From Podarcis liolepis (lineage: Eukaryota), in NCBI GenBank assembly GCA_965112155.1, contig OZ218112.1: a stretch of 64,000 bases of DNA, one strand, 5' to 3'. The position numbers were made by a program, and so were the translations under genes. The notes below the pieces were generated by a model. The model made no database searches. It was not told where the DNA came from and worked only from the letters and a program-made list of their open reading frames with translations. How positions within the stretch are numbered: position 1 is the stretch's first letter; the number at the start of each line of letters is the position of its first letter. Positions 3,932 through 61,113 of the stretch are shown piece by piece.

Positions 3932-6039
3932 CCCGACTCTTTCCTGGCCATCTGATGTGGAGAGTGGAGATGCTTCAAGCTGGCAGGAGCTGGCAGGCTA
4001 TTGGCATAGATAAACAGCACACAGTGGTGGTAATTACAATAAGATTTATTGTATATAGTCATTAGCCTCAGAGCCACACACACTAGCAACTATCCATCGC
4101 AATTCAATTGAAGCATCTGAGCCATCATCGCATCTCCGAGAGGAAACAGGAAAGTGTCCACCCCTCCTCCTTTTTGATTGATGCCTCTCTTTGACCTTTG
4201 TTCTTCTGCAAACTCTTAGACTTTCAGGGTCAGCTCCCACCCCTTCTTCTGCTGAAGATTCTCCCCTCCCCTGAGAGGTGACTAATGGCCGCTCGCCAGA
4301 GGGTTGGCCTGCATCCAGCCCAATCTCACTGTATTCATAAGGTACATTCCCGCCTCCTTCTGGAAAGGGGGACTCTAACCCACTGCTTTTGGCTGGCTGA
4401 GAGAAAGGCACGTCTCTATCTCCCCCTTCTGACTGCCTGCCTTCCCCCCTGCTTGGACTGTTCCTCTGGACTGTGGGAAGCTATGTCCATGACACTGGCC
4501 CTGAGTAAGTCCCCTAATTATGTTGACCACCAGCACTGGGCCTGCTATGAAAACAGGCCTTGCTCAGTTGTCCTTTTGCAAATGCCAGTGTCATCTTGAA
4601 ATAATGTCTCATTGGAGCAGTTATGGTTCTTTCCAGAAAGAAGAGAGGAGAAAGAATATAATTAGGCTTGGTTGGCAGCACAAAAATGCACAAATAAATA
4701 TGTATCATGCGACCAAGTCACCAGGAGGGGCACATTCTGCTGTAATTATGCAAATAAATCCACAGGGTACTCTCTGGGATCAACCGCCTTGTACATTTGT
4801 ATTAATCAGAGGCAATGTAACTGACAAGGGAATCTATTGCACTGCTTTCCTGGCAAGAGGCACATCTAATGGCAGAGGAGTCTGCACCACAGTCTGCTAC
4901 AGAAGGCAGAGGGCTGCCTGCCTTATCTCAACAAGTCCTTTAGGTATCTGGGGGAGGCCACCAAACCCGCTACAGCTCTGAATAAATAACACTTTCTCCA
5001 CTTCAAAGTTCACCAGTTCAACCCTCCACAATGCACACATACAAATGTTGATTGTCCCCTGGAATTTGCACTGTTTTTCATATCCTCCTTCTCTGTATAG
5101 GATGCTGAGGCATCTGTTTAATGTAAAGATGTTTGCATATCCTCAGATGAACTTTTCTGACACTTCAGCAAGAACAGCTGGATTTGGGGGCAAATAACAC
5201 AGCCCTGGATTTTGTATTCAAGGCCCCGAGCTGCCTGATTTGTCCCCAGGTTGAAGCCTCTACTTTATCAAGCAGCAGATGAAAAAAGGCAGTTGGTTTC
5301 TGGTGTTTCTCTGATATATTTCCCCTTCTTTCTCTCTCTCTTTTTTTTTTAAAGAACAAAACAAAATAGATTTTCTAACAATTTAAGAAAGATGAGAAAT
5401 GTTTTGTTTGGAATGGGGCAAGATCTGTTTTTACCATAAGAACAGTGGTATTCAATCTGACCCATAATCTGTCTTGCCCAGTGAACAACGGATTGGGTGC
5501 CAGGATCATATCAGTGACTATAACAGTCAGTTCTGATAATTTCACGTCACACTGGAGTGTGACCAAGACACATTGATTGAGGAACCAGCTTGTGGGGGAA
5601 AGAAGGCAATCCTCCAGGGTGCTAATGCCTCCCCTAAGCCCTCTACCCCCCACCCATCTCCTGCCCAATGAGGCCCTAGTTGCCATAGTGGGTGAATAAG
5701 ACTAACTTCACATCAGGTCTTTCTATTTCTTTGCCAGAAAAAGCAGCTTGTGAGGGCTTGTGGGGGGCAGGGAGCAGCTCTGATGGTGAGTAGGCTGCAG
5801 GCAGAATTTGAAACTTAATAGTTGAGAATGGGGTTTGGGAAGAGTATGAGAGCTCTCCAAACCTTCTCTTTACTGAATCTGGTAACTCAGACATCTACAT
5901 CATAGGTGCCCTTGATGTGTTATTGGACTCCAACTCCTATCAGTCTCAGCCAGCATAACAAATAGTAATGATGGGAGCTGCAGCCCACCAAGAACACAGG
6001 TTTGGGGAATACGGTGATTAGCTTTTGGCTGTGTTGGAG

Positions 6040-8700: not shown

Positions 8701-10180
8701 TGATTCCCTCCCCAGATTGTATTCCCATTAATCTCTAGCTGGGGTGGATTCTCCAACCAGAGTAGGCACATCCTGGGAGAGGGAAGTAACTGCCTCCTCC
8801 AGCCTCTGTTCCCTAGTCTCAACCCCCTCCAACACATGTCAGCCTTCTGTTCTCCATCCTTGTCCATCTCACCTTGCCAACGCTTGAGCCTGGCAATACC
8901 TCAGGGCTCTTGAAACTGGGCACAAAAATTCACCGAGAGACAAAAGAACGTAGGGTGGGTCTTTAAAAACAAAACAAAACCTCAGCCTTTAGGTGATGTG
9001 GGTTGATGGCTTGGATTTCCCATGCTTTTTGTTTGGCTGATTAATAGCCCCAGAAAGTGGCTTTCAAGGTCAGGTAAAGCAGGGAGGGAGGACATCAAAA
9101 CCTTCTGCAAACACCTACAGTAAATGGCTGCTACAAAGAGAGAGATAGAAAACTTCCTGGTAATATAAACCTGTAGGATGGAGTCCTGCCTTCTGGAAGA
9201 GTGGTGATACCCTCCCAGGCTTCCCAGTATCCAAAACAGTTTGCCTCTGAATGCCAGCTGCTGTGAAACACAAATGAGGAAATTGCTGATGCAGCCAGGT
9301 CCTGCTTGTCAGTTTGCCATTGAGGCATCTGATTGGACACTGAGGGAACAGGATGCTGGACTAGATGGGCCTTTTGCCTGATCCATTAGAGCTCTTCTTA
9401 TGAACTTAAGGAGATGATCTGCCCGTTATCCATGCCACAATAATGCCCACACTGCATTACTGCAATGCTCAGGTCCCCAGTGAAAATGGACGTTGCAAGA
9501 ATCAGGTGGTAGCCACAGGTGATAGTTGACACCAAGCAAATTAGCCAAAATGCCTAGTTCTAAAGGTGATCTATGCTGGAAGTGCAAAGAAACAAGCAGC
9601 ACATTTTATCATTCATGGTGGTCTTGTGGAATAATAAAAGAATTTTGGGAGATGCTGTATAATGAACTTAAGAAAATGTTTAGAAGAATGTTTACCCCAA
9701 ACCCAGAAGCTTTCCTTCTGGGAATAATAACAACAGAACTCGCACGAAATCAAATTACTCTATGGATGTATGCGGCCACAGCTACCAGAATTCTGGTAGC
9801 TCAAAAGTGGAGAACAGATGAAGTACTGCCACATGAAGAACGGCACCTTAAATTATTAGAATATATAGAACTTGCCAGCATAACAAATAGATTCAGAAAC
9901 AAAGACAACAAAAAATTAAAAGAGGGTTGGACATTTTATATAGATTATATGGAAAAACATTAGAACAAAAAAATAAGCATGACAGGCTGCCAAAAAATAC
10001 TCAGCAGTAGAGGTTATATAAGGTAATGAAAAAAACTTAGTAGAGTAAGAAAATGCAGTTGAAAAGATAGCAGTTAGGAAACTAAGGAAAGAGTGGAAGG
10101 GGAGTCAAAAGTAAGGTTTATGAGAGTCAAACAAATCGGAGGAGTAAGTTATGTTACTACTAATATTCATTTATATATGT

Positions 10181-10936
10181 TGTCAGGGGTTTAGGAGCAG
10201 AGGCAAGGGCAAGGGATGAAACAGAGAGCGAAGGGGAGGAGGCAGAAGAAAAGATGAGTGATGACGACGACCCGAGATCTCCGAGTCTTTCCAGTGAATC
10301 AGAGGATTCACAGAAAGGAGCACCAGTGGCCAGGGCAAGGGGGGAGTCTAGGGGGGCACCCCAGGAAGATAGAGCCAGAGGGGACTCAGAGGAGAGCAGT
10401 TGGAAATCGGGACCAGCGTCACCGCCAGAGAGCAGGGAAGAGGAAAGGAGCCAGGGGGCAAGCGCTGGCAGCTCACCACAGGAGGGAGGGCACGAGTCAG
10501 GAGTGGCCACACCTCCATCGGGGAGCGAAGAAACGGTTAAGCGGAAAGTGGAAGGTTGGGCTCGCGCGCCAAGTTCAAATGCAGAGGAAGGTGGCGCAGT
10601 AAGCAGCCCGGAAAGGGAGCCAGGTCCTAAAGCCCGGCGCAAGGAGACAGGAGGGTCCGGGGGGTCAGCGTCAGAAGAATCCCGGAAGGAAGAGACCCCG
10701 GGGGGTAGAGGGACCCAGAGGAGGACAGTCAGGCGGAAAAGGTGGAGCCGGGCTAGGGTATTAAGTTGGTGCACACGGGGCGGAGACTCAGACGGAGCTT
10801 CGCCGATCTAGCTACTAGACGTAGAGTTGCGCGCAGCAGCGTGAGAATGGAAACTGTAACTCAATAAAGACTTTTACTTAATGATCGCTGGCTAGCGTGA
10901 TCCTCTGTGAGCTAGGATCTTCAAGCAGCTCTGACA
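10181..10936 (+). mobile_element. Young solo LTR (Gypsy-type) containing a 209-codon open frame
   Basis: TGTCAG...CTGACA termini; 5-bp TSD tatgt (10176-10180, 10937-10941); AATAAA at 10863; many CpGs retained. Confidence 0.9.
10182..10811 (+). CDS. LTR-encoded acidic/Ser-Gly-rich, basic-tailed open frame (first ATG at 10254); translation unproven
   Basis: No stop from LTR base 2 (VRGLGAEARARDETESEGEEAEEKMSDDDD...) to TAG at 10809-10811. Confidence 0.35.
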   Translation, partial: VRGLGAEARARDETESEGEEAEEKMSDDDDPRSPSLSSESEDSQKGAPVARARGESRGAPQEDRARGDSEESSWKSGPASPPESREEERSQGASAGSSPQEGGHESGVATPPSGSEETVKRKVEGWARAPSSNAEEGGAVSSPEREPGPKARRKETGGSGGSASEESRKEETPGGRGTQRRTVRRKRWSRARVLSWCTRGGDSDGASPI

Positions 10937-10966
10937 TATGTCTTATATTTATGTTATTTTTTCTTA

Positions 10967-27284: not shown

Positions 27285-28224
27285 TTGTTGTTGTTGTTGT
27301 TTAGTCGTTTAGTCATGTCCGACTCTTCGTGACCCCATGGACCAGAGCACGCCAGGCACTTCTGTCTTCCACTGCCTCCCGCAGTTTGGTCAAACTCATG
27401 CTGGTAGCTTCAAGAACACTATCCAACCATCTTGTCCTTTGTCGTCCCCTTCTCCTTGTGCCCTCCATCTTTCCCAACATCAGGGTTTTTTCCAGGGAGT
27501 CTTCTCTTCTCATGAGGTGGCCAAAGTATTGGAGCCTCAGCTTCACGATCTGTCCTTCCAGTGAGCACTCAGGGCTGATTTCCTTCAGAATGGATACATT
27601 TGATCCTCTTGCAGTCCATGGGACTCTCAAGAGTCTCCTCCAGCACCATAATTCAAAAGCATCAATTCTTCGGCGATCAGCCTTCTTTATGGTCCAGCTC
27701 TCACTTCCATACATCACTACTGGAAAAACCATAGCTTTTACTATACGGACCTTTGTTGGCAATGTGATGTCTCTACTTTTTAAGATGCTGTCTAGGTTTG
27801 TCATTGCTTTTCTCCCAAGAAGCAGGCGTCTCTTAATTTCGTGGCTGCTGTCACCATCTGCAGTGATCATGGAGCCCAAGAAATTAAAATCTCTCACTGC
27901 CTCCATTTCTTCCCCTTCTATTTGCCAGGAGGTGATGGGACCAGTGGCCATGATCTTTGTTTTTTTGATGTTGAGCTTCAGGCCATATTTTGCGCTCTCC
28001 TCTTTCACCCTCAATAAAAGGTTCTTTAATTCCTCCTCACTTTCTGCCATCAAGGTTGTGTCATCTGCATATCTGAGGTTGTTGATATTTCTTCCGGTAA
28101 TCTTAATTCCGGCTAGGGAACTGTAGCTTCTTGTCCCACATAGAGATTTCTCAGGAGACAGATGAGGTGATCAGGCACTCCCATTTCTTTAAGAACTTGC
28201 CATAGTTTGCTGTGGTCAACACAG
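27285..28224 (-). mobile_element. BovB (RTE) LINE, 5'-truncated, inserted in the Copia pol region
   Basis: Intact ORF 27313-28053 preceded by NNLRYADDTT; ends LVHGVTKSRT plus (CAA)n tail. Confidence 0.97.
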
Positions 28225-28515: not shown

Positions 28516-29079
28516 CTAAAATACACTACTCACTTTCACTTCTCCTGTCCTTGGATTAAGAATTATGTAACCTTTGCACCCCTTCTCAAAGCAGACAAAT
28601 ATTCCTAACTCAGTCCCGGTGCTAAGTTTGGTATGTCTTTGTGCTGGCACATATGCAAAAGCTTTTGTTCCAAAGACTCTAATGTGACTAATGTTCGGTA
28701 CTCTTCCAAACCAAAGTTCAAATGCTGCTTTATTTGCAGCTTTTGTTGGCAGTCTGTTCTGCATACATCTGACCATCTCCATCAGAGAGCAATTCTTTCT
28801 CTCTGCTATTCCACTTTGTTCTGGGGTAAATGGGGTAGTGTGCAAATGTTTAACATCACCGCTGTCTGAAAGTATTGCTTGTGGCTTCCTTCTGAATTGA
28901 TTTTTAACGCTTGCAACAAACATCTTCAATTTTTCTACAGTTTCTGATTTGTCCTTTAAAAGATAAGTTGTGTAGTATCTGGAATAATCGTCAATAAATG
29001 TTAAGATATACTTATTTTTCCCATGAGACATCGGTTGAATTGGACCAGATATATATATATCAGTATGAATAAGTTGCAA
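28516..29079 (-). pseudogene. Copia integrase core remnant
   Basis: LIHTD...YILTFIDDYSRY...TPFTPEQSGIAERKN...RVFG. Confidence 0.9.
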
Positions 29080-30061
29080 AGGCTCTGCTGAGCTTCTCTA
29101 GTTTTGCTTGGGGAAAGAAGGTATTGTTCTCCAGCAAACAACTTTCACATACTTCACTAATTCAGGTCAACTTTACAAGGTTTAATTTCCATTCCTCTCA
29201 CCAAACCTTTCTTTGGCAGGTCTGCAATAATCTTGAAGTTTCTATGTCCCAGCATTTTCTGCCATTGAGGAATACAGGTTGCACTTGAATTCTTTTTGAC
29301 CATATTCACCCTTTCTTGACCTATATCTAGCACAAAGATTCCATTCTTTTCAAAATATTGTGCATACAGAACTCCATCTTTGGTAATTGCACATCTGTTG
29401 TGATTAAAATTTCCATCAAAACCATGCTTGGTCAGAGTTGACACACTCAGCAAACTGTCTGTTAATTCTGGCAAGTAAACTACATCTCTCACTTCATTAC
29501 AAACAGTTTTTCTGCCTTCAACACACTTATCCGAACCTGCTCCTTTTCCTTGCACAGAAATTTTGCAACTGTAACTGTTTCTGATGCGTTTTCATTTAAC
29601 TCTCTGAAAAAATTAGCATCACACGTCATGTACAATGAAGATACTGAATCAATTAACCAACTAGAGGAGTTACTGTTAATAGCATCTGTTTTCCTATAAC
29701 CTGAGATTGCTAGATAGTTCTGATAGTACCACCCTGGAACCTATCTTTATTAGTGCCACTTTGTTTTGTACAATTCTGTGCAAAATGTCCCATTTTCTCA
29801 CATGAGAAACATCCGGTTGTTTCTTTTTTGTCTGCGCCTTGAAAAGCACTTTTATTTTTAAAATTATACTTACCAATCTTTTGTACAGCAAATACTTGCG
29901 TTTCACCCTCTCCTGCCTTTTCTGCTCTCCTAGCAGCCTCCTCTTTAAGTCTTGATACAACGTACTTTTATGCCAAGTTTATCTTTAGTCTCTAGTGCAT
30001 ATATCAAAGAATTGTAACTTTCAGGCAGACTTGCAGAATTAAAATCACTTTGTCCTCTTCT

Positions 30062-30481
30062 TCAAATTTCTTGCCTATAGTATTTAAATGATCCATCAAC
30101 TCTATCACTTGACTTTTCTAAATCTCCATTTTCTTTCAATTTAATACTAAACAGCTTTCTTGATAAATACAGTCTCTCATTCAGAGTGTTCCTCTCATAC
30201 AACTCTTTCAGACCTTGCCACAACTCCATGGCAATCTTAAAATTGCTTATGTGGTGTAAGTCACTCACATGAGTTGAACTGTCTGCCCTAGCATTTCTGT
30301 CCTGCTTTTCCCACTTCACTTTCTCTGCCTCTTCTGCTGGTGGAGATTTTTCAATTGTTTCCCACAAATCCTTCTTCACCACCTCATTCTCCATTCTAGA
30401 TTTCCATAAAGGATACTTACTTGAAGTGAGAACAGGCACAGCAGGCTCTAGGGCTTCCACAGCTTTTATATACGTGGCCAT
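30062..30481 (-). pseudogene. Copia gag N-terminal remnant
   Basis: LTSSKYPLWKSRM...KDLWETI...ELWQGLKELYE...LSRKLF. Confidence 0.85.
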
Positions 30482-30521
30482 AATTTCTTTTCTCTCTGCC
30501 AGACGGGGCCCATAACCCAAT

Positions 30522-30903
30522 TGTTGTGCAGCGGGGGATGATTAACAAAATCAATCCTCCTGGCAAACTGGGTATATCACCTCAGTCGTGCAATTTAGGA
30601 CATTCCACACCTTTCCTCAGCAGTTTCTTTCTCTTTGAGAAAAATAAGTCACTCATGTAAATGTAAACTAAGCTTTAGTAATAAAGAAAACTACAACAAA
30701 ATAACATGAAATGAGGAGCTAAATATAGCATGAGGCAAGTCTGAGGCAAGAAACAAGAAGAGGCAGTTTGTCCCTCATAACTGACACTCTCAACTGAACA
30801 CGCCCTGAAGAGAGGGGCTGATTCTGGAGCAAAGCACACAAGCCCCGCCCACCAGATACCAGGCACTCTACTATTCAAATTAGGCCCCAGTGTTTTTCTT
30901 ACA
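30522..30903 (-). repeat. Copia 5' LTR
   Basis: Direct repeat of 25273-25647; followed on the minus strand by the PBS. Confidence 0.92.
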
Positions 30904-35600: not shown

Positions 35601-36189
35601 TATTCTAGATACAACATTGTCTTACACTGAAAATAACTAAGAGATTCTATGATCTGGGGGGGGGGGGGAGAAAAAAGACGTTGGAATGGAACAATGACTT
35701 GGAAGAACCACCACCATATAATATTCATTGCTGTCACCCAGCTATCTACTGGAAACACAACCTTAGTAATTCAGGAGACCCATAGGAAATGAATGAAGTC
35801 CCAGCTAGGGAAGAAATGATCTCAGTTTTGGTTTCTCTCACTTTCTCTTTGTGAAGGGAACTCAGCTGGCATGGCCAATCTGTGTATGGCTCCCCAGCTT
35901 GCCTGATGCACTGCAAAGACATTAGGAGAGAAGAGGAGCTGTTAAGGGATGCCACACGTCAGGAGGATGCAAAGAGTGTCCTGCTTAAAAAATTGTGTGT
36001 GGGAGTGCCTGGGTTTGGGCCCCAGTGAAAAATCCTCCCTCCCATGAGGGTTGGACCAGTTAAAAATCTATACATGGGATATAAAATAAATGTGTGGTCT
36101 CTTTCTAATGTTAATAATAAATACGATACTATTCATACCTGCTCAGAATATTTAGATCCCAATGACATATCAATAATGCCAGCTCACCA

Positions 36190-38705
36190 GGTCCGAGTGG
36201 TGGCCATCTTCCCGAATCCATGCCGTTCGGTGGCCATTGCTTCTCCCCTCCCCTCCCTTTGGTTGCTGCGGAGACCTCATGAATGTGAGTGCTGTGGTGG
36301 TTCACATCCCTGTTCTAAATGTTTTCATGCCAGGACCTCTTTTCATAGCTTCTGGAACTCAGGACTCACCTCAGGAGAGAAGGGGTTTAGAGTGGCTGCT
36401 GGTACTTTGGGTTCCTAGTCAGCAAAAGGATCTGCTCAAAAATGACATGCTTTTCTCCCTAGCCCCCTCCCCAGTCTCTCTTGCAGCTATGTTACCTCTC
36501 TGGCGCGTATACCCCAGCAGGAAGGCGGTGAGATACCTGGAAGAGAGATTTCGTGAAGGCTTTCATATCCCAGCGGAAAGTACTCTGATTACGACTAACC
36601 CACCAAATCAGAAGTCAGTGAGGGAAATGCTACACATCACTCAGAAGAAGACTGAAAAGGAGTGCGACCTTGGCAGGGTCACAGATCTGTTTCCAAATCC
36701 GCCTTTTAACAAATTTATAGTGTCACTCCTCAGGATTATACCCCAAAAGGTCCTGGGTGAATTCCGCATGATTCTTACCCAAAAGGTGGTTCAGTAAACA
36801 ACATCATCTCGCAAGAGAAGTGTTCTGTTAAATATGCATCATTGGATCATGCAATCAAATAAATTAAAGAGTGTGGCCCTGGCGCCATCTTGGCAAATTG
36901 TGACATTGAATCTGCATTCCGCAGACTACTCCCGGTTCACCTGGATGACTTCTGGTTGCTGGGTTTCAAGTTTCAGGATCAGTGGTATTTTGACAAGGCC
37001 GTGCCCATGGATTGTTCCATAGTGTGTGCCAACTTTGAGACTTTTAGCACATTTGTTGACTGGGCTATGAAGGTAAAGTCAGGCTGCCCCTATGTTATTC
37101 AGTACTTGGATGACTGCTAGATAATGGGTCCTCCGGACTCAGATGCTTGCTCTGGGGCATTAGCTTCATTTATCAAAATTGCTACCGATTTTGGCATACC
37201 CTTATCAGCAGAAAAAATAGAGGGTCTGGCCAGCAATTTGTCATACTTGGGCATTGAGCCTAAACATCTCGTTTACCACAAGCTAAGTTAGATACTCTTA
37301 GGTGTTTGTTAAATTCCATGATTTCTCTCAAAAAGACCACCCTGTGTCAGGTGCAGTCCCTTCTAGGGCACCTCAATTTTACATGTTAGGTCATTGGCCT
37401 GGTAGAGCTTTCTGTGCCTCTCTTGCGCATCTCATGGCGGGGGGAGTTGTTCCTCACCATCATATTAGGGTGACACACAGCATAAAAGAGGATCTCAAGA
37501 TATGGTTGACGTTCCTCAATAATTATTGGGCTCATTTTGGCAGGAGTCATTAATCACACTCTGATGCCTCCGCTCACTGCGGTTTTGGAGTCTACTTCAG
37601 GGGCCACTAGTGTGCCCATCCATGGCAAGCATTGTGGCATTCTGGAGACATCACACATGATCTAACTTTTCTTGAGTCCCCCCCCCCCCCAATTTTAGTC
37701 ACACTTGGGCCATCAGTTCAAGAACAACAGGGTTTGTTTCTGGTCTGACAACCAGATAGTGGTAAAAATAATAGCCAAGCAGTCAACCAAACTGGAACAA
37801 GTTATCCGGGTGCTTTGCCTCTGTGTTAGAATGCCTTCGAGGTAACATTTCCTTCTTAGCTATGTTTGTTCCTGGCCTTAATAATGTCATTGTGGATGCC
37901 TTGTCTTGTTTCCAGATGGAACATTTTTGCGACCTGGCACCCCAGGCTTCCCAGCTACCAGATGCCTTCCTGAAGGAGCCTTGGGAAATTGAACAAGAGA
38001 AGTGACACAGGGACTATTGCAGGTCCTTGCACCCTCCACAATGCGGGCTTACACAAGAGCATGGTCATCCTTTGAAGGGTTCAGAGCCCAGTTCTGCTCA
38101 TCTCACAGGCATTCCGCTATGGAATCTGACGTTCTAAAACACCTGGTTTTCGTTAAATGGAAAGGCTTGACAATCAACACCATGAGCCTCCACAGGGCGG
38201 CTATCTCTTATTTTAGCAAACGTCTTTGGATACCTGATCCCTGTAATACCTTTCACATAAAAAAGCTAATCACTGGCTGGCGTCATGTGCACCTGGTGTT
38301 GCCAGACACAAGAAAGTCTATTACTGTCAAGACTTTGCAGCTGATTTGGGGCAAGTTGTGCAGTATTTGTTGGTCCAGTTTTGAAGTCCAGTTATTCCAA
38401 GCTGCATATTCTTTGGCCTTCCTTGGGGCCCTGTGTATTGGCGAGTGCGCTGGGGGCGCAGCATCATCGCCCCATGCTGGATTGAGTATTAAGCATATAA
38501 ATTTCCATGGCATTTTCTGAAGCTCAGAATACGTTCTTCCGAAACTGATTAGTTCTTCCAAAACTGTTGAGGGGCACAACCCTAATGCTGGCCCCTTCGC
38601 CATACAATGGCTCTTGCCCTGTTTGTGATACCCGTAGGTTCCTGAGAGTCAGGCCCAATCTGGGCGGCCCATTCCTTATTCACATGAATGCCCGCCCTCT
38701 GTCCT
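36190..38705 (+). mobile_element. Decayed DIRS-order tyrosine-recombinase retrotransposon (Ngaro-like)
   Basis: Zn finger HECECCGGSHPCSKC; RT CDIESAFRRLLPVH...YFDKAVPM...YLDD; RNase H DAS..CGFGVYF and VPGLNNVIVDALS; YR domain 38002-38705 (LAPSTMRAYTRAW...YSLAFLGAL...IRSSETD...CPV...RP..GGPFLIH). Confidence 0.9.
38002..38705 (+). pseudogene. Tyrosine recombinase remnant, 3'-truncated
   Basis: N-terminal and box I regions present; ends before the HxxR/Tyr catalytic segment. Confidence 0.85.
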
Positions 38706-41272: not shown

Positions 41273-41756
41273 TGTCAAGCATGGGGAGTCCTTCCCTCCC
41301 TTCGGTAACTTCACAGGTAAGAATTAACAAGCAGTTCATAGATTTATAGTCCCTTTATTGCAGCGTCATGTTGCAAGCACAAATACACAGCTGTCTGCAA
41401 TGAGAATGGTTGCCTGGTCTAATCATCCTTCCGACTTCCGCAGCATTTTGAGCACCAACAGGAAGTTCCTCCCTCCCTCTGACTCCATTGTTCTCTGATA
41501 CGTTCAGACCTCTGAGTCCAAGGGAAGGGGAGGTCCTCCACGCTCTGAAGAGATGTCTCAGCTAGCTGCTGCCTCCCTTCTGGTTCTGTTGTCATTATCT
41601 CATAACTGGGTAACTCCCCTCAAAGCTGTTCAGTTTCTGCCTCTCTCTCCGCTTCTGAATACATTGTGGGCAAGGGGGGCGATTCTTCCATCGGAGAGAA
41701 GCTGGTCTGCCATTGAATGCATTCCCCAGTACTCATCTTCAGACCATTCCCTGACA
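41273..41756 (-). mobile_element. Old solo LTR inserted in a CR1 3' UTR
   Basis: TGTCA...TGACA termini; 5-bp TSD tctcc at 41268-41272 and 41757-41761; minus-strand AATAAA near 41355. Confidence 0.85.
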
Positions 41757-55827: not shown

Positions 55828-56469
55828 TGTCGCAGAGTATGTCAGACAGTACATCATTTAGCTCAAGGTTGGAATTAACTCTTTAGTAGCAAAAACACAA
55901 TCTCCACAGACTTGGCTGAGTGTCAGGCCTAATGAGCACAGCAGCTCGTTCCCCGTGGAAATTTCTATGGAATTCTATGGAATCGGTTTCATAGAAAACC
56001 GATTTCTGTGAAATCAGTTGCTGAGACCAAAGGTCCCTGCTTCCTCACATCTGCCTATGTCTCCTTCTCTCTAGGGCTTTCCCCAAGCAATCAGAGACTG
56101 TGCTGGTATGTGGCCAGTCTCTCCTCTGCCCATTGCATGCCTCTCCTGGTTCTAGGAGACAGGATGGAGGGGAGCTTGTCACAGCAGGAGGGGCAGACAC
56201 CCTCACCAAGCAGACTCATCTCTGTTTTTTGACCTCCCTTCTGACACTTGCCAGCTTCTGCCTTGGATTCTGGACTTCCCTCTGCCACAGACCCCTCTGT
56301 CTCACTAAGCCCTGTTACTCCTTCAGCTGCTGACTCCTCTTTCCACTCTTCTCTCTCCAACCACTTGTCGTTGTCCCACCACCACTCTCTAGGCTCTGAG
56401 CCTTCTTCCCTTGGTGGTTCTCCAGCTGCTTCCTCTTACCATTCCTCTGCATCCAATGAGTCCATGACA
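55828..56469 (-). mobile_element. Solo LTR inserted in a MITE
   Basis: Minus strand TGTCA...CGACA; 5-bp TSD ggggt at 55823-55827 and 56470-56474; the MITE halves rejoin. Confidence 0.88.
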
Positions 56470-59137: not shown

Positions 59138-59700
59138 AATTGAAATTGAAATACGTTATTGTCACTTGTACAACTTGTATACAGTGAAATTACATGAGCA
59201 CACCCACCCCCTCAGCTCTCTTAGTCTTAATTCCCCTCGTTTACTGGCGCACACCAACCAAACCGAAAGTCAGTGACCCTGTTGTTATCTTTTCATTCAG
59301 CAGCCTAACAGCCCATGGATAGAAGCTGTTCTTTACCCTGTTGGTGCGACTAATCATGCTTCTATATCTTCTGCCTGACGGCAGATCAAGAAAGTGCCGG
59401 CCAGGGTGTGAATCATCCCTGAGAATTTTCCTCAATCTCCTGAGGCAACGATCTTCTGCTATTTCATCCAGTGGATTCACGGGACAGCCCATAATATCTT
59501 GTGATGTATTCAACACCCTCTGTAGGCACTTCCTATCAGATGATGTCAAACCAGCATACCACACCGTGATGCAGTATGAAAGGACACTTTCTATTGTTGA
59601 CCGGTAGGAGATCATCAGATGTTGATTGATATCATTCTTCCGCAATACTCTGAGGAGATGGAGTCTCTGATGGGCTTTCTTAACCACCTGGGTTGTATTT
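59138..59700 (-). mobile_element. Rex-Babar clade LINE 3' fragment
   Basis: ORF 59241-59687: VKKAHQRLHLLRVL...YRSTIESVL.YCITVWY...DDSHP...LPSGRRYRS...KNSFYP (DUF1891-type RT C-terminus); (ATTTCA)n tail. Confidence 0.88.
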
Positions 59701-61113
59701 AATGGTTCTAATTATATTCTGGTTCAGGAAAAAAACACAGATTATTCACACCAGTTTTTGGTTCAGGCTTAGTTTGAATTCCCCCCTGGCCCAGACCTAC
59801 AAGGATCTGTTTACAACATTAAATGTTTCACTGGAGTCAGCTCAACTGCCTCACAGAAATTACATACGCATGCGCACGTGCGTGCACACACACACAAACA
59901 CACACACACAAAAAGTTATGTAAAGTTAGGACATTCCAGTAGATTTTTTATTCCTCCTTTCAACAGATACTGCAGATATTATGATGAATGCAAATGCCAG
60001 AATCATATATAGTACGGATGGCAAATCATTTATATCAGGATAGGAGTGGGAAACTTTTTACAGTCCAAGGGCTACATTCCCATCTGGATAAATTTCCTGG
60101 GGCCACACGGATCAAAAGTGGGCAGAGCAACAAATGTAAATGTAGTCTTTGTATGGTGAGCTAATTTTTAGACACACTCACCTTCCTTTCCCCTCTCTAT
60201 CCTCCATCCTTTGAAGGTCCACTTGATGGATCCCATGTCCACTTCTTAGGCTGCCTTGAGTACATCAAGTTCATTACCTTCTTCCAAAGCAGATTCAATC
60301 CAGGACATTAACATTTGTTTACTGCCTAATGTGTCTCAATTTCTACAGGGGCCTACAGCTGATTTTACACACACACACACCAAGAAATTATTCATTGCTT
60401 AAAGCCTTTGGTTATTTAGACATGTAACTCCAAATCCTGCTTCCAATTATATTTGTATAAATATAGAAGTTTGCAGAGCTGCTCCTGATTTTCTACAAGG
60501 TATCTGAGCGTCCATTGAGCCTTCTGATGATATCTGCCAAAGTAGCATCACTTCTGGGCATGCAGCCCAAGGTAAGTGTCTTAAGTAGGCTCTCTTTTCA
60601 GGGTATGGAAGTCCTGTGCCCTATTTTACAGTGGACAGCCTATGCAAAGAACTTACCAGTCACAGACCAGTCTAAAGATAAAGTGTTGGAAGTGCAGATA
60701 CACAAGATCATTAAGTTTGTAATGTAAGGGTTAATTATATTATCAGTAAGTCATATAACCATGGGGGAGGTGTTGCTTAGCAACCTGGCAGAGTGGCATG
60801 ATGTTTGCTGAGGCTACATCTGATTAGCTGTGGATTTCTTTTCTCTCTGGTCTCAGTCTACATTATATAAATGATTTTACTAACATAAAGAGCCCCAAGA
60901 AAGGAGATCAGAAGGGAGGAGTTTTGGCGTTACCAATCAACTGTGAGCCCCTATACTGAGCAGGCACGCAGGTCACCTGAGAACTACTGTATGATTGCCA
61001 GAGTTCCCTGGGAAGAGGAGTTGCTTGTCAAGGGAATAGAGCTGTCCTAACAACTATCAGCAACTATCATGCTTGACAAACTACAGCTCCCAGGATCTCA
61101 TTCAATATTTTAC

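Follow-up and report, generated by a model that had tools for sequence, protein, structure and literature searches.

An LTR-encoded C-terminal extension of Pol in a young self-priming chromovirus of the lizard Podarcis liolepis

A 756-bp solo LTR in the genome of Podarcis liolepis is open in one reading frame from its second base, and this frame is the end of a pol gene. In full-length copies of the same element, a young self-priming chromovirus, the last 209 codons of pol pass through the polypurine tract (PPT) into the 3′ LTR, where they are kept by purifying selection. This read-through is conserved across the clade, a self-priming complement stands in place of a tRNA primer site, and the family is enriched near the ends of contigs. 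The LTR-encoded residues probably form part of a disordered integrase tail, with predicted nuclear-import and chromatin-docking motifs that would bias insertion.

Results

The window, the whole stretch of 64,000 nucleotides that was analysed (contig OZ218112.1, assembly GCA_965112155.1), carries the LTR at 10181-10936 on the + strand. It begins with TGTCAG, ends with CTGACA and is bordered by the 5-bp target-site duplication (TSD) TATGT, read from the sequence at 10176-10180 and 10937-10941 (+). Full-length genome matches to this LTR, called family A here, were at 99-100% identity in all 40 cases scored (from 2608 candidates), which together with the TSD confirms the proposal in an earlier note on this DNA that it is a young solo LTR. 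The base-2 frame runs for 209 codons without a stop (10182-10811, +, with the stop codon at 10809-10811) and ends 51 nt before the AATAAA polyadenylation signal at 10863-10868 (+), where about 50 nt had been claimed. The encoded peptide, described earlier as rich in Glu, Asp, Ser and Gly with SP/TP sites, indeed contains 34 Ser, 32 Glu, 28 Gly, 26 Arg, 21 Ala and 16 Pro, with 8.6% hydrophobic or aromatic residues, and has seven SP/TP sites against 3.2 in shuffles (P=0.024).

The length of the frame taken alone goes only modestly beyond chance. Frames of at least 209 codons on the + strand arise in about 1% of dinucleotide shuffles of the LTR, and the predicted U3 (10181-10789, +), which is coding throughout, has a T content of only 10%, so that length is weak evidence. 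Shuffling, one of the checks that the earlier note proposed, does not suffice as sole proof of the frame; the data on selection given below do support it, and the reality of the frame is settled by comparison among copies. An open antisense frame at 10160-10807 (-) was rejected as a gene, since the antisense is open in 46% of codon shuffles and has stops in 5 of 14 subfamily copies; it is a by-product of the amino-acid composition of the sense frame.

In tblastn searches the frame matches Pol residues 1349-1557 at 99%, that is, the last 209 residues of Pol in full-length copies, after the integrase and chromodomain. Several family-A LTR matches are paired about 5.8 kb apart, and eight LTR-pair elements are about 6.55 kb each with 5-bp TSDs. 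Three of the first eight elements (L031, L032 and L035) have an unbroken pol of 1557 codons, which starts in the overlap with gag and ends at LTR nt 629, and the other five have a break somewhere in pol; frames of 1556 or 1557 codons were found in about 83 of the 150 copies listed (hand count). Pol joins the LTR at GA-T|GTC (Asp-Val), and the lengths of the G-runs at this junction are identical in 36 of 39 copies. The junction was surveyed in 27 elements of clade A, to which family A belongs, and clade E, with one mis-called LTR pair dropped; most of these were picked for long frames, so the survey shows design and not frequency. At least 774 open codons lie upstream of LTR base 2 in 25 of the 26 remaining elements, and in 22 a terminal motif is reached after 100-224 LTR codons, the other four being broken inside the LTR. 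Sister families have the same junction even where Pol identity falls to about 55%, the level that separates clade A from the divergent clade E. These results confirm that the family-A LTR frame is the C-terminus of Pol/integrase and no separate gene, which was one of the two readings offered in the earlier note; the in-frame passage of pol through the PPT to LTR base 2, which it had asked for, is what the copies have.

Frames of 1374 codons recur in six of the 150 copies listed. A tail-less sublineage was considered and rejected for these, since the G-run that slips is not the same in the two examined, so that separate slips or errors in the reads are the likelier cause.

The LTR at 10181-10936 is the solo LTR of a very young self-priming Tf1/sushi-type chromovirus (Gypsy). 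Full-length family-A elements encode a Gag with a CCHC zinc knuckle, followed by an overlapping pol in which Pfam finds protease, reverse transcriptase, RNase H, integrase, SH3 and a weak chromodomain. The chromodomain is clear in clade E but degenerate in family A (Pfam Chromo E 0.026, below the cut-off; HP1 matches E 0.017), and its aromatic-cage residues, read against HP1, are missing in clade A. The slippery heptamer G GGA AAC lies inside the gag/pol overlap of L031, L201 and L159. Family-A elements have no tRNA primer-binding site but a self-priming complement in its place: the 10-11 nt that follow the 5′ LTR are, in 18 of 19 elements, the complement of a sequence close to the end of the LTR frame (10790-10800, +). 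The two sides co-vary between subfamilies and are paired in the predicted fold. Self-priming defines the Tf1/sushi group, according to the available parts of bioRxiv 10.1101/2022.12.06.519325 and PMC6317226.

From the position of the self-primer, the RNA is predicted to start at LTR nt 610-611, so that U3 would be wholly coding and the frame would lie upstream of the RNA start. A solo LTR would then not express the frame from its own promoter, and the copy at 10181-10936 would be a recombination remnant, silent in this respect. The nearest named proteins, with the same tail, are from Podarcis muralis and P. lilfordi. An Rfam search with the family-A LTR part gave no match.

The family-A LTR frame is under purifying selection. 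In nucleotide alignments of real copies its dN/dS is 0.22-0.39 in 14 of 14 pairs (NG86 without transition correction, the pairs not being independent), whereas the pol core gives 0.04-0.17 and four other frames 0.6-3.1; an antisense frame that shares third positions shadows it at 0.29-0.62. Among 56 family-A LTRs, four rearranged or truncated loci having been excluded beforehand, shared variants are 8 non-synonymous to 13 synonymous and private variants 22 to 9 (P=0.024), and all three indels inside the frame are multiples of three (3, 12 and 27 nt). Both a dN/dS below one and a bias to such indels had been named as checks beforehand. The LTR-frame values are 2-9 times those of the pol core, and the LTR peptides of clades A and E are barely alike beyond the end motif (profile search, E about 0.09), so that much of the tail may be spacer. 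The LTR peptide has no match in Pfam, PDB profiles or the Atlas (best 0.76), the PDB search giving weak HP1 chromodomain matches only.

Several short blocks are nevertheless held constant in clade A, and in six clade-A peptides 48 of the 69 invariant residues show synonymous codon variation. The acidic/Ser block S-x-S-x-SSESEDSQ (10278-10313, +) and the basic cluster EPGPKARRK (10617-10643, +), of which SSESEDSQ and PKARR are the conserved cores, are kept through synonymous changes; between them lies the conserved block V[KR]RKV...RAPSSN (10536-10580, +), a putative NLS-like basic cluster. At 10719-10772 (+) the peptide ends in a basic run and the motif W-x4-[VIL]-L-[SN]-W-C, whose counterpart in the tails of sister clades (clade E, P0010 and P0011) is a basic run followed by LLCW[KR]. 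A TATA constraint was rejected as the source of this end motif, since the L-x-W residues stay where the overlapping TATTAA is lost (L209, L210, L201-L203 and clade E). The final D-G-A-S codons overlap the self-primer and are partly under RNA constraint. The end motif bears a possible resemblance to the CENP-C motif, on which no claim is made.

The earlier note saw the same T|GTC frame open in three other LTRs of the window and suggested that all four may carry one module. These are old solo LTRs, of family B at 3981-4494 (-), family C at 41273-41756 (-, TSD TCTCC) and family D at 55828-56469 (-, TSD GGGGT), with 70-84% identity between the copies of a family; the window copy of family B has no matching TSD. 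The window copies themselves are broken early, at codons 26, 42 and 11 for B, C and D, and it is at the family level that the frame is open: for about 120 codons in B, and without shared stops to column 356 in C and column 350 in D. Over the first 345 nt or so, shared stops in the base-2 frame number one, none and none (6, 18 and 17 copies), against ten in the other two forward frames together for each family (P about 0.075, 0.017 and 0.017), the depletion relative to other frames for which the note had suggested looking. The frame of B, like those of further B-like families, ends in a basic run and then C-W-R-R or C-x-R-R, which suggests that B probably belongs to the same clade as A. Profile searches found no homology of the B, C and D peptides to those of A or E (best E 0.057), and no internal pol for them was found by tblastn of 60 flanks, by PPT patterns or at B-like loci. 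The single module is only partly supported, by the layout and the terminal motif of B, and not by homology; a design common to all four families is likely.

An LTR-coded peptide of about 120 residues is widespread in the P. liolepis genome. Further old solo-LTR families (L242, L244, L246-L250, L252, L254 and L255) are related to B at the protein level only, with 147 matches among 150 scored. The family-D peptide opens with W-W-W-D-D/N-D-E-W, like the W-W-D-D that precedes the LTR in clade A; the profile match is not significant. Seventeen short D-like LTR starts (L215-L231) lie at G000:C7:93.58-94.58 Mb, in a duplicated block with fragments that look by eye like SCAN/KRAB zinc-finger genes.

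Upstream of the LTR, and so outside the window, the tail carries further short motifs (about 5450-5510 in L031; L159-L170). In clade A the stretch between chromodomain and LTR contains F-F-D-D-W-L-F, then a Ser/Thr linker of 8 residues and then F-x-G-F-x-S-[DA]-E, whilst clade E and P0010 have two motifs each, made up of W-x3-F, an acidic linker and [FL]-x-G-F. The F-x-G-F is invariant in clade A; clade E has F-R-G-F and L-E-G-F, and P0010 has two. These motifs resemble the TIMs that bind LEDGF and HRP2, described in the available part of PMC9987994 as a helix, an acidic linker of 8-16 residues and an FxGF that both proteins need. The likeness, which occurs once in clade A and twice in clade E and P0010, lies in a hydrophobic segment ahead of FxGF that is helix-like by sequence only, in a linker of 8-9 residues and in FxGF itself. 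The linker is acidic in clade E, P0010 and P0011; it differs from a TIM in clade A, family A included, being Ser/Thr-rich with the acidic run after FxGF.

An acidic FxGF tail is present in 17 of 145 relatives with SH3 and chromodomain. All 17 fall, with two frameshifted members, in one clade (SH-aLRT 100) in a quick tree search on the SH3 and chromodomain only that took in 62 of the 145 (the 17 and 45 others). Exons like those of PSIP1 and HDGFL2, the host genes for LEDGF and HRP2, were found in the same genome. Complex prediction for the Podarcis LEDGF binding domain and the family-A FxGF peptide, run without alignments and without controls, scored 0.01 and speaks neither for nor against binding. 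Lentiviral integrases engage the same LEDGF domain through the catalytic core. A search of the open literature found no description of a TIM in a retrotransposon integrase. In Zootoca vivipara, a degraded remnant of the chromodomain tail (P0018) is fused into predicted host proteins and ends at a PPT-like G-G-W-M.

Family A is concentrated near contig ends, where 31 of 79 full-length copies on six contigs of known length lie no more than 1 Mb from an end and 1.5 would be expected (matches listed), and it is enriched at both ends of several contigs. A second clade-A family has 7 of 21 within 1 Mb against 0.44 expected (ten contigs, matches listed). By contrast only 2 of 55 clade-E copies among the matches listed lie this close (Fisher P=1e-6 against family A); clade E is also young, with LTR pairs at 99.3-100%. 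The 3′ flanks of sampled family-A copies differ, though one insertion is duplicated between two ends (L036/L037). Clade E has the LTR-coded tail yet no end enrichment and, since clade A is without chromodomain cage residues, the LTR-coded part cannot be singled out as the source of the end bias. Insertions may instead be purged less at ends, or the altered chromodomain may be responsible.

TAACCC telomeric repeats lie directly against three family-A copies on their 3′ side (L101, L108 and L016), and two copies (L107 and L121) are nested inside pol of another. About 37 of the 150 clade-E matches listed (hand count) lie on one 40-Mb contig, G000:C20, where about four are expected from its length; this contig is possibly a W-like repeat sink.

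Discussion

The arrangement that we favour, and think probable, is one in which the LTR frame extends an integrase tail. A -1 frameshift at G GGA AAC would yield Gag-Pol, as the position of the heptamer in the overlap suggests, and the integrase would retain a tail of about 370 residues. This tail is probably disordered, to judge from composition alone. Its basic clusters may act in nuclear import, and its short motifs would dock on chromatin and bias the choice of insertion sites. A bolder extension of this arrangement is speculative and rather doubtful: that the clade rebuilt integrase targeting as host-mimicking motifs, with a TIM-type FxGF on LEDGF/HRP2, the tether of HIV, and an LTR-encoded basic W/L motif, and that one branch lost the chromodomain cage, lengthened the LTR-coded part and homes to chromosome ends. 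If this were so, the plant CR motif would have its counterpart among vertebrates, and LEDGF would be reached by a retrotransposon through genuine motif mimicry.

The tail could also be translated and constrained without any role in target choice, as a hydrophilic spacer or NLS carrier, or after protease cleavage as a product acting alone in particle assembly or RNA binding, with the end enrichment arising from survival bias or the altered chromodomain. We regard this as unlikely, though it must be taken seriously. Its low complexity, an in-frame length that varies from 100 to 224 codons and the undetectable A-to-E homology apart from the end motif are what a spacer would give, and the end bias absent from the tailed clade E and the cage residues absent from clade A also fit. 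A spacer does not, however, need the short W/L/P/N blocks that are kept through synonymous change, and the flanks of the sampled copies differ, with three adjoining telomeric repeats. Another idea is that purine-rich promoter DNA leaves the frame open as a by-product, with a conserved end made up of DNA and RNA signals (a TATA-like box and the self-primer). The T-poor U3 and the shuffles that reach 209 codons are in keeping with it, as is the overlap of D-G-A-S with the self-primer and, in some families, of TATTAA with the I/V-L-S codons. But the low dN/dS is specific to the LTR frame, L-x-W outlasts TATTAA, and the stop-free frame is the same one in B, C and D. This idea is largely refuted, holding only for the last eight or so codons, and as an account of the whole frame it is scarcely credible.

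The other reading in the earlier note was a separate accessory peptide, made from its own start codon or a spliced RNA in the manner of nef or sag, which solo LTRs could express. HIV nef and MMTV sag are separate genes that overlap U3, with their own starts and separate RNAs. The lizard frame is like them in overlapping U3 but differs in being the end of pol, and they are not its closest precedent. Family A has a single in-frame Met, at codon 25, and in two RNA runs from a related species the LTR is covered several-fold more deeply than the internal part, with a strand skew of about 2:1. That Met, however, is missing from sister families (L209, L210, L201, L159 and L166), the frame lies upstream of the predicted RNA start, and in every clade examined it is in frame with pol. 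Deep LTR reads are expected from the many solo LTRs within host transcripts; the reads extend over the whole element, all 30 bins on either strand, and show no sign of a start, an end or splicing and no GT..AG joints. A separate peptide is accordingly very improbable. The HMGN comparison in the earlier note, which rested on an acidic tract and an RRSxR-like tail, finds no support: the nucleosome-binding core motif of HMGN is RRSARL, and neither RRSxR nor RRSARL nor RSxRL occurs in the family-A LTR peptide.

The closest likeness to the favoured integrase tail is with plant CRM chromoviruses of group A (CR motif/CHDCR; Bingo1-4/7 of beet), in which, according to the available part of PMC3059260, the pol ORF also extends into the 3′ LTR. 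There the CR motif downstream of the PPT replaces the chromodomain, the primer is tRNA-Met and the elements are centromeric, whereas the lizard family keeps a degenerate chromodomain upstream of the PPT and primes itself; its bias is to contig ends and is not demonstrably centromeric. It is CRM-like in layout but not a CRM member, as self-priming and the chromodomain show, and we infer that the likeness is convergent. The elements of the Tf1/sushi group itself (V-clade, Sushi-ichi and Amn; Metaviridae/Ty3-gypsy) share the CCHC Gag, the order protease, reverse transcriptase, RNase H, integrase and chromodomain, the overlapping gag and pol with a slippery heptamer and the 10-11 nt self-priming complement, features given for the group in the available text of bioRxiv 10.1101/2022.12.06.519325 and PMC6317226. 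The lizard clade differs in its tail of 190-390 residues after the chromodomain, which covers the whole predicted U3. The U3 of Sushi is T-rich by description in the available part of PMC3601003, unlike the T-poor U3 of family A. In Ty1, a yeast element of the Ty1/copia type, insertion is directed by a short motif in the linker of a bipartite NLS, between the basic clusters at the end of the integrase (available part of PMC7459421); the likeness to the lizard tail is by description only.

The Ty1 targeting linker is not known to be LTR-encoded. For vertebrate chromoviruses no description of a pol that enters the LTR was found in the open literature, with subscription papers (e.g. Butler et al. 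2001), Repbase/Dfam and supplements outside the scope of the search. The plant CRM design, in which U3 is both promoter and integrase tail, is present in a vertebrate lineage, and it explains the thousands of lacertid solo LTRs that look like acidic/basic open frames and are annotated as hypothetical proteins. How vertebrate LTR retrotransposons choose their insertion sites is largely open, and here is a young, high-copy family in which short motifs are conserved and a candidate host partner can be named, with two sister clades that differ in tail and distribution.

Elsewhere in the window, degraded Copia-like gag, protease and integrase frames were seen by eye at 28516-30541 (-). Fragments at 27313-28170 (-), 59241-59711 (-), 9526-9963 (+) and 36177-38520 (+) look by eye like RTE/BovB, Rex1/L2-type and L1-type LINE ends and DIRS-type reverse transcriptase/recombinase.
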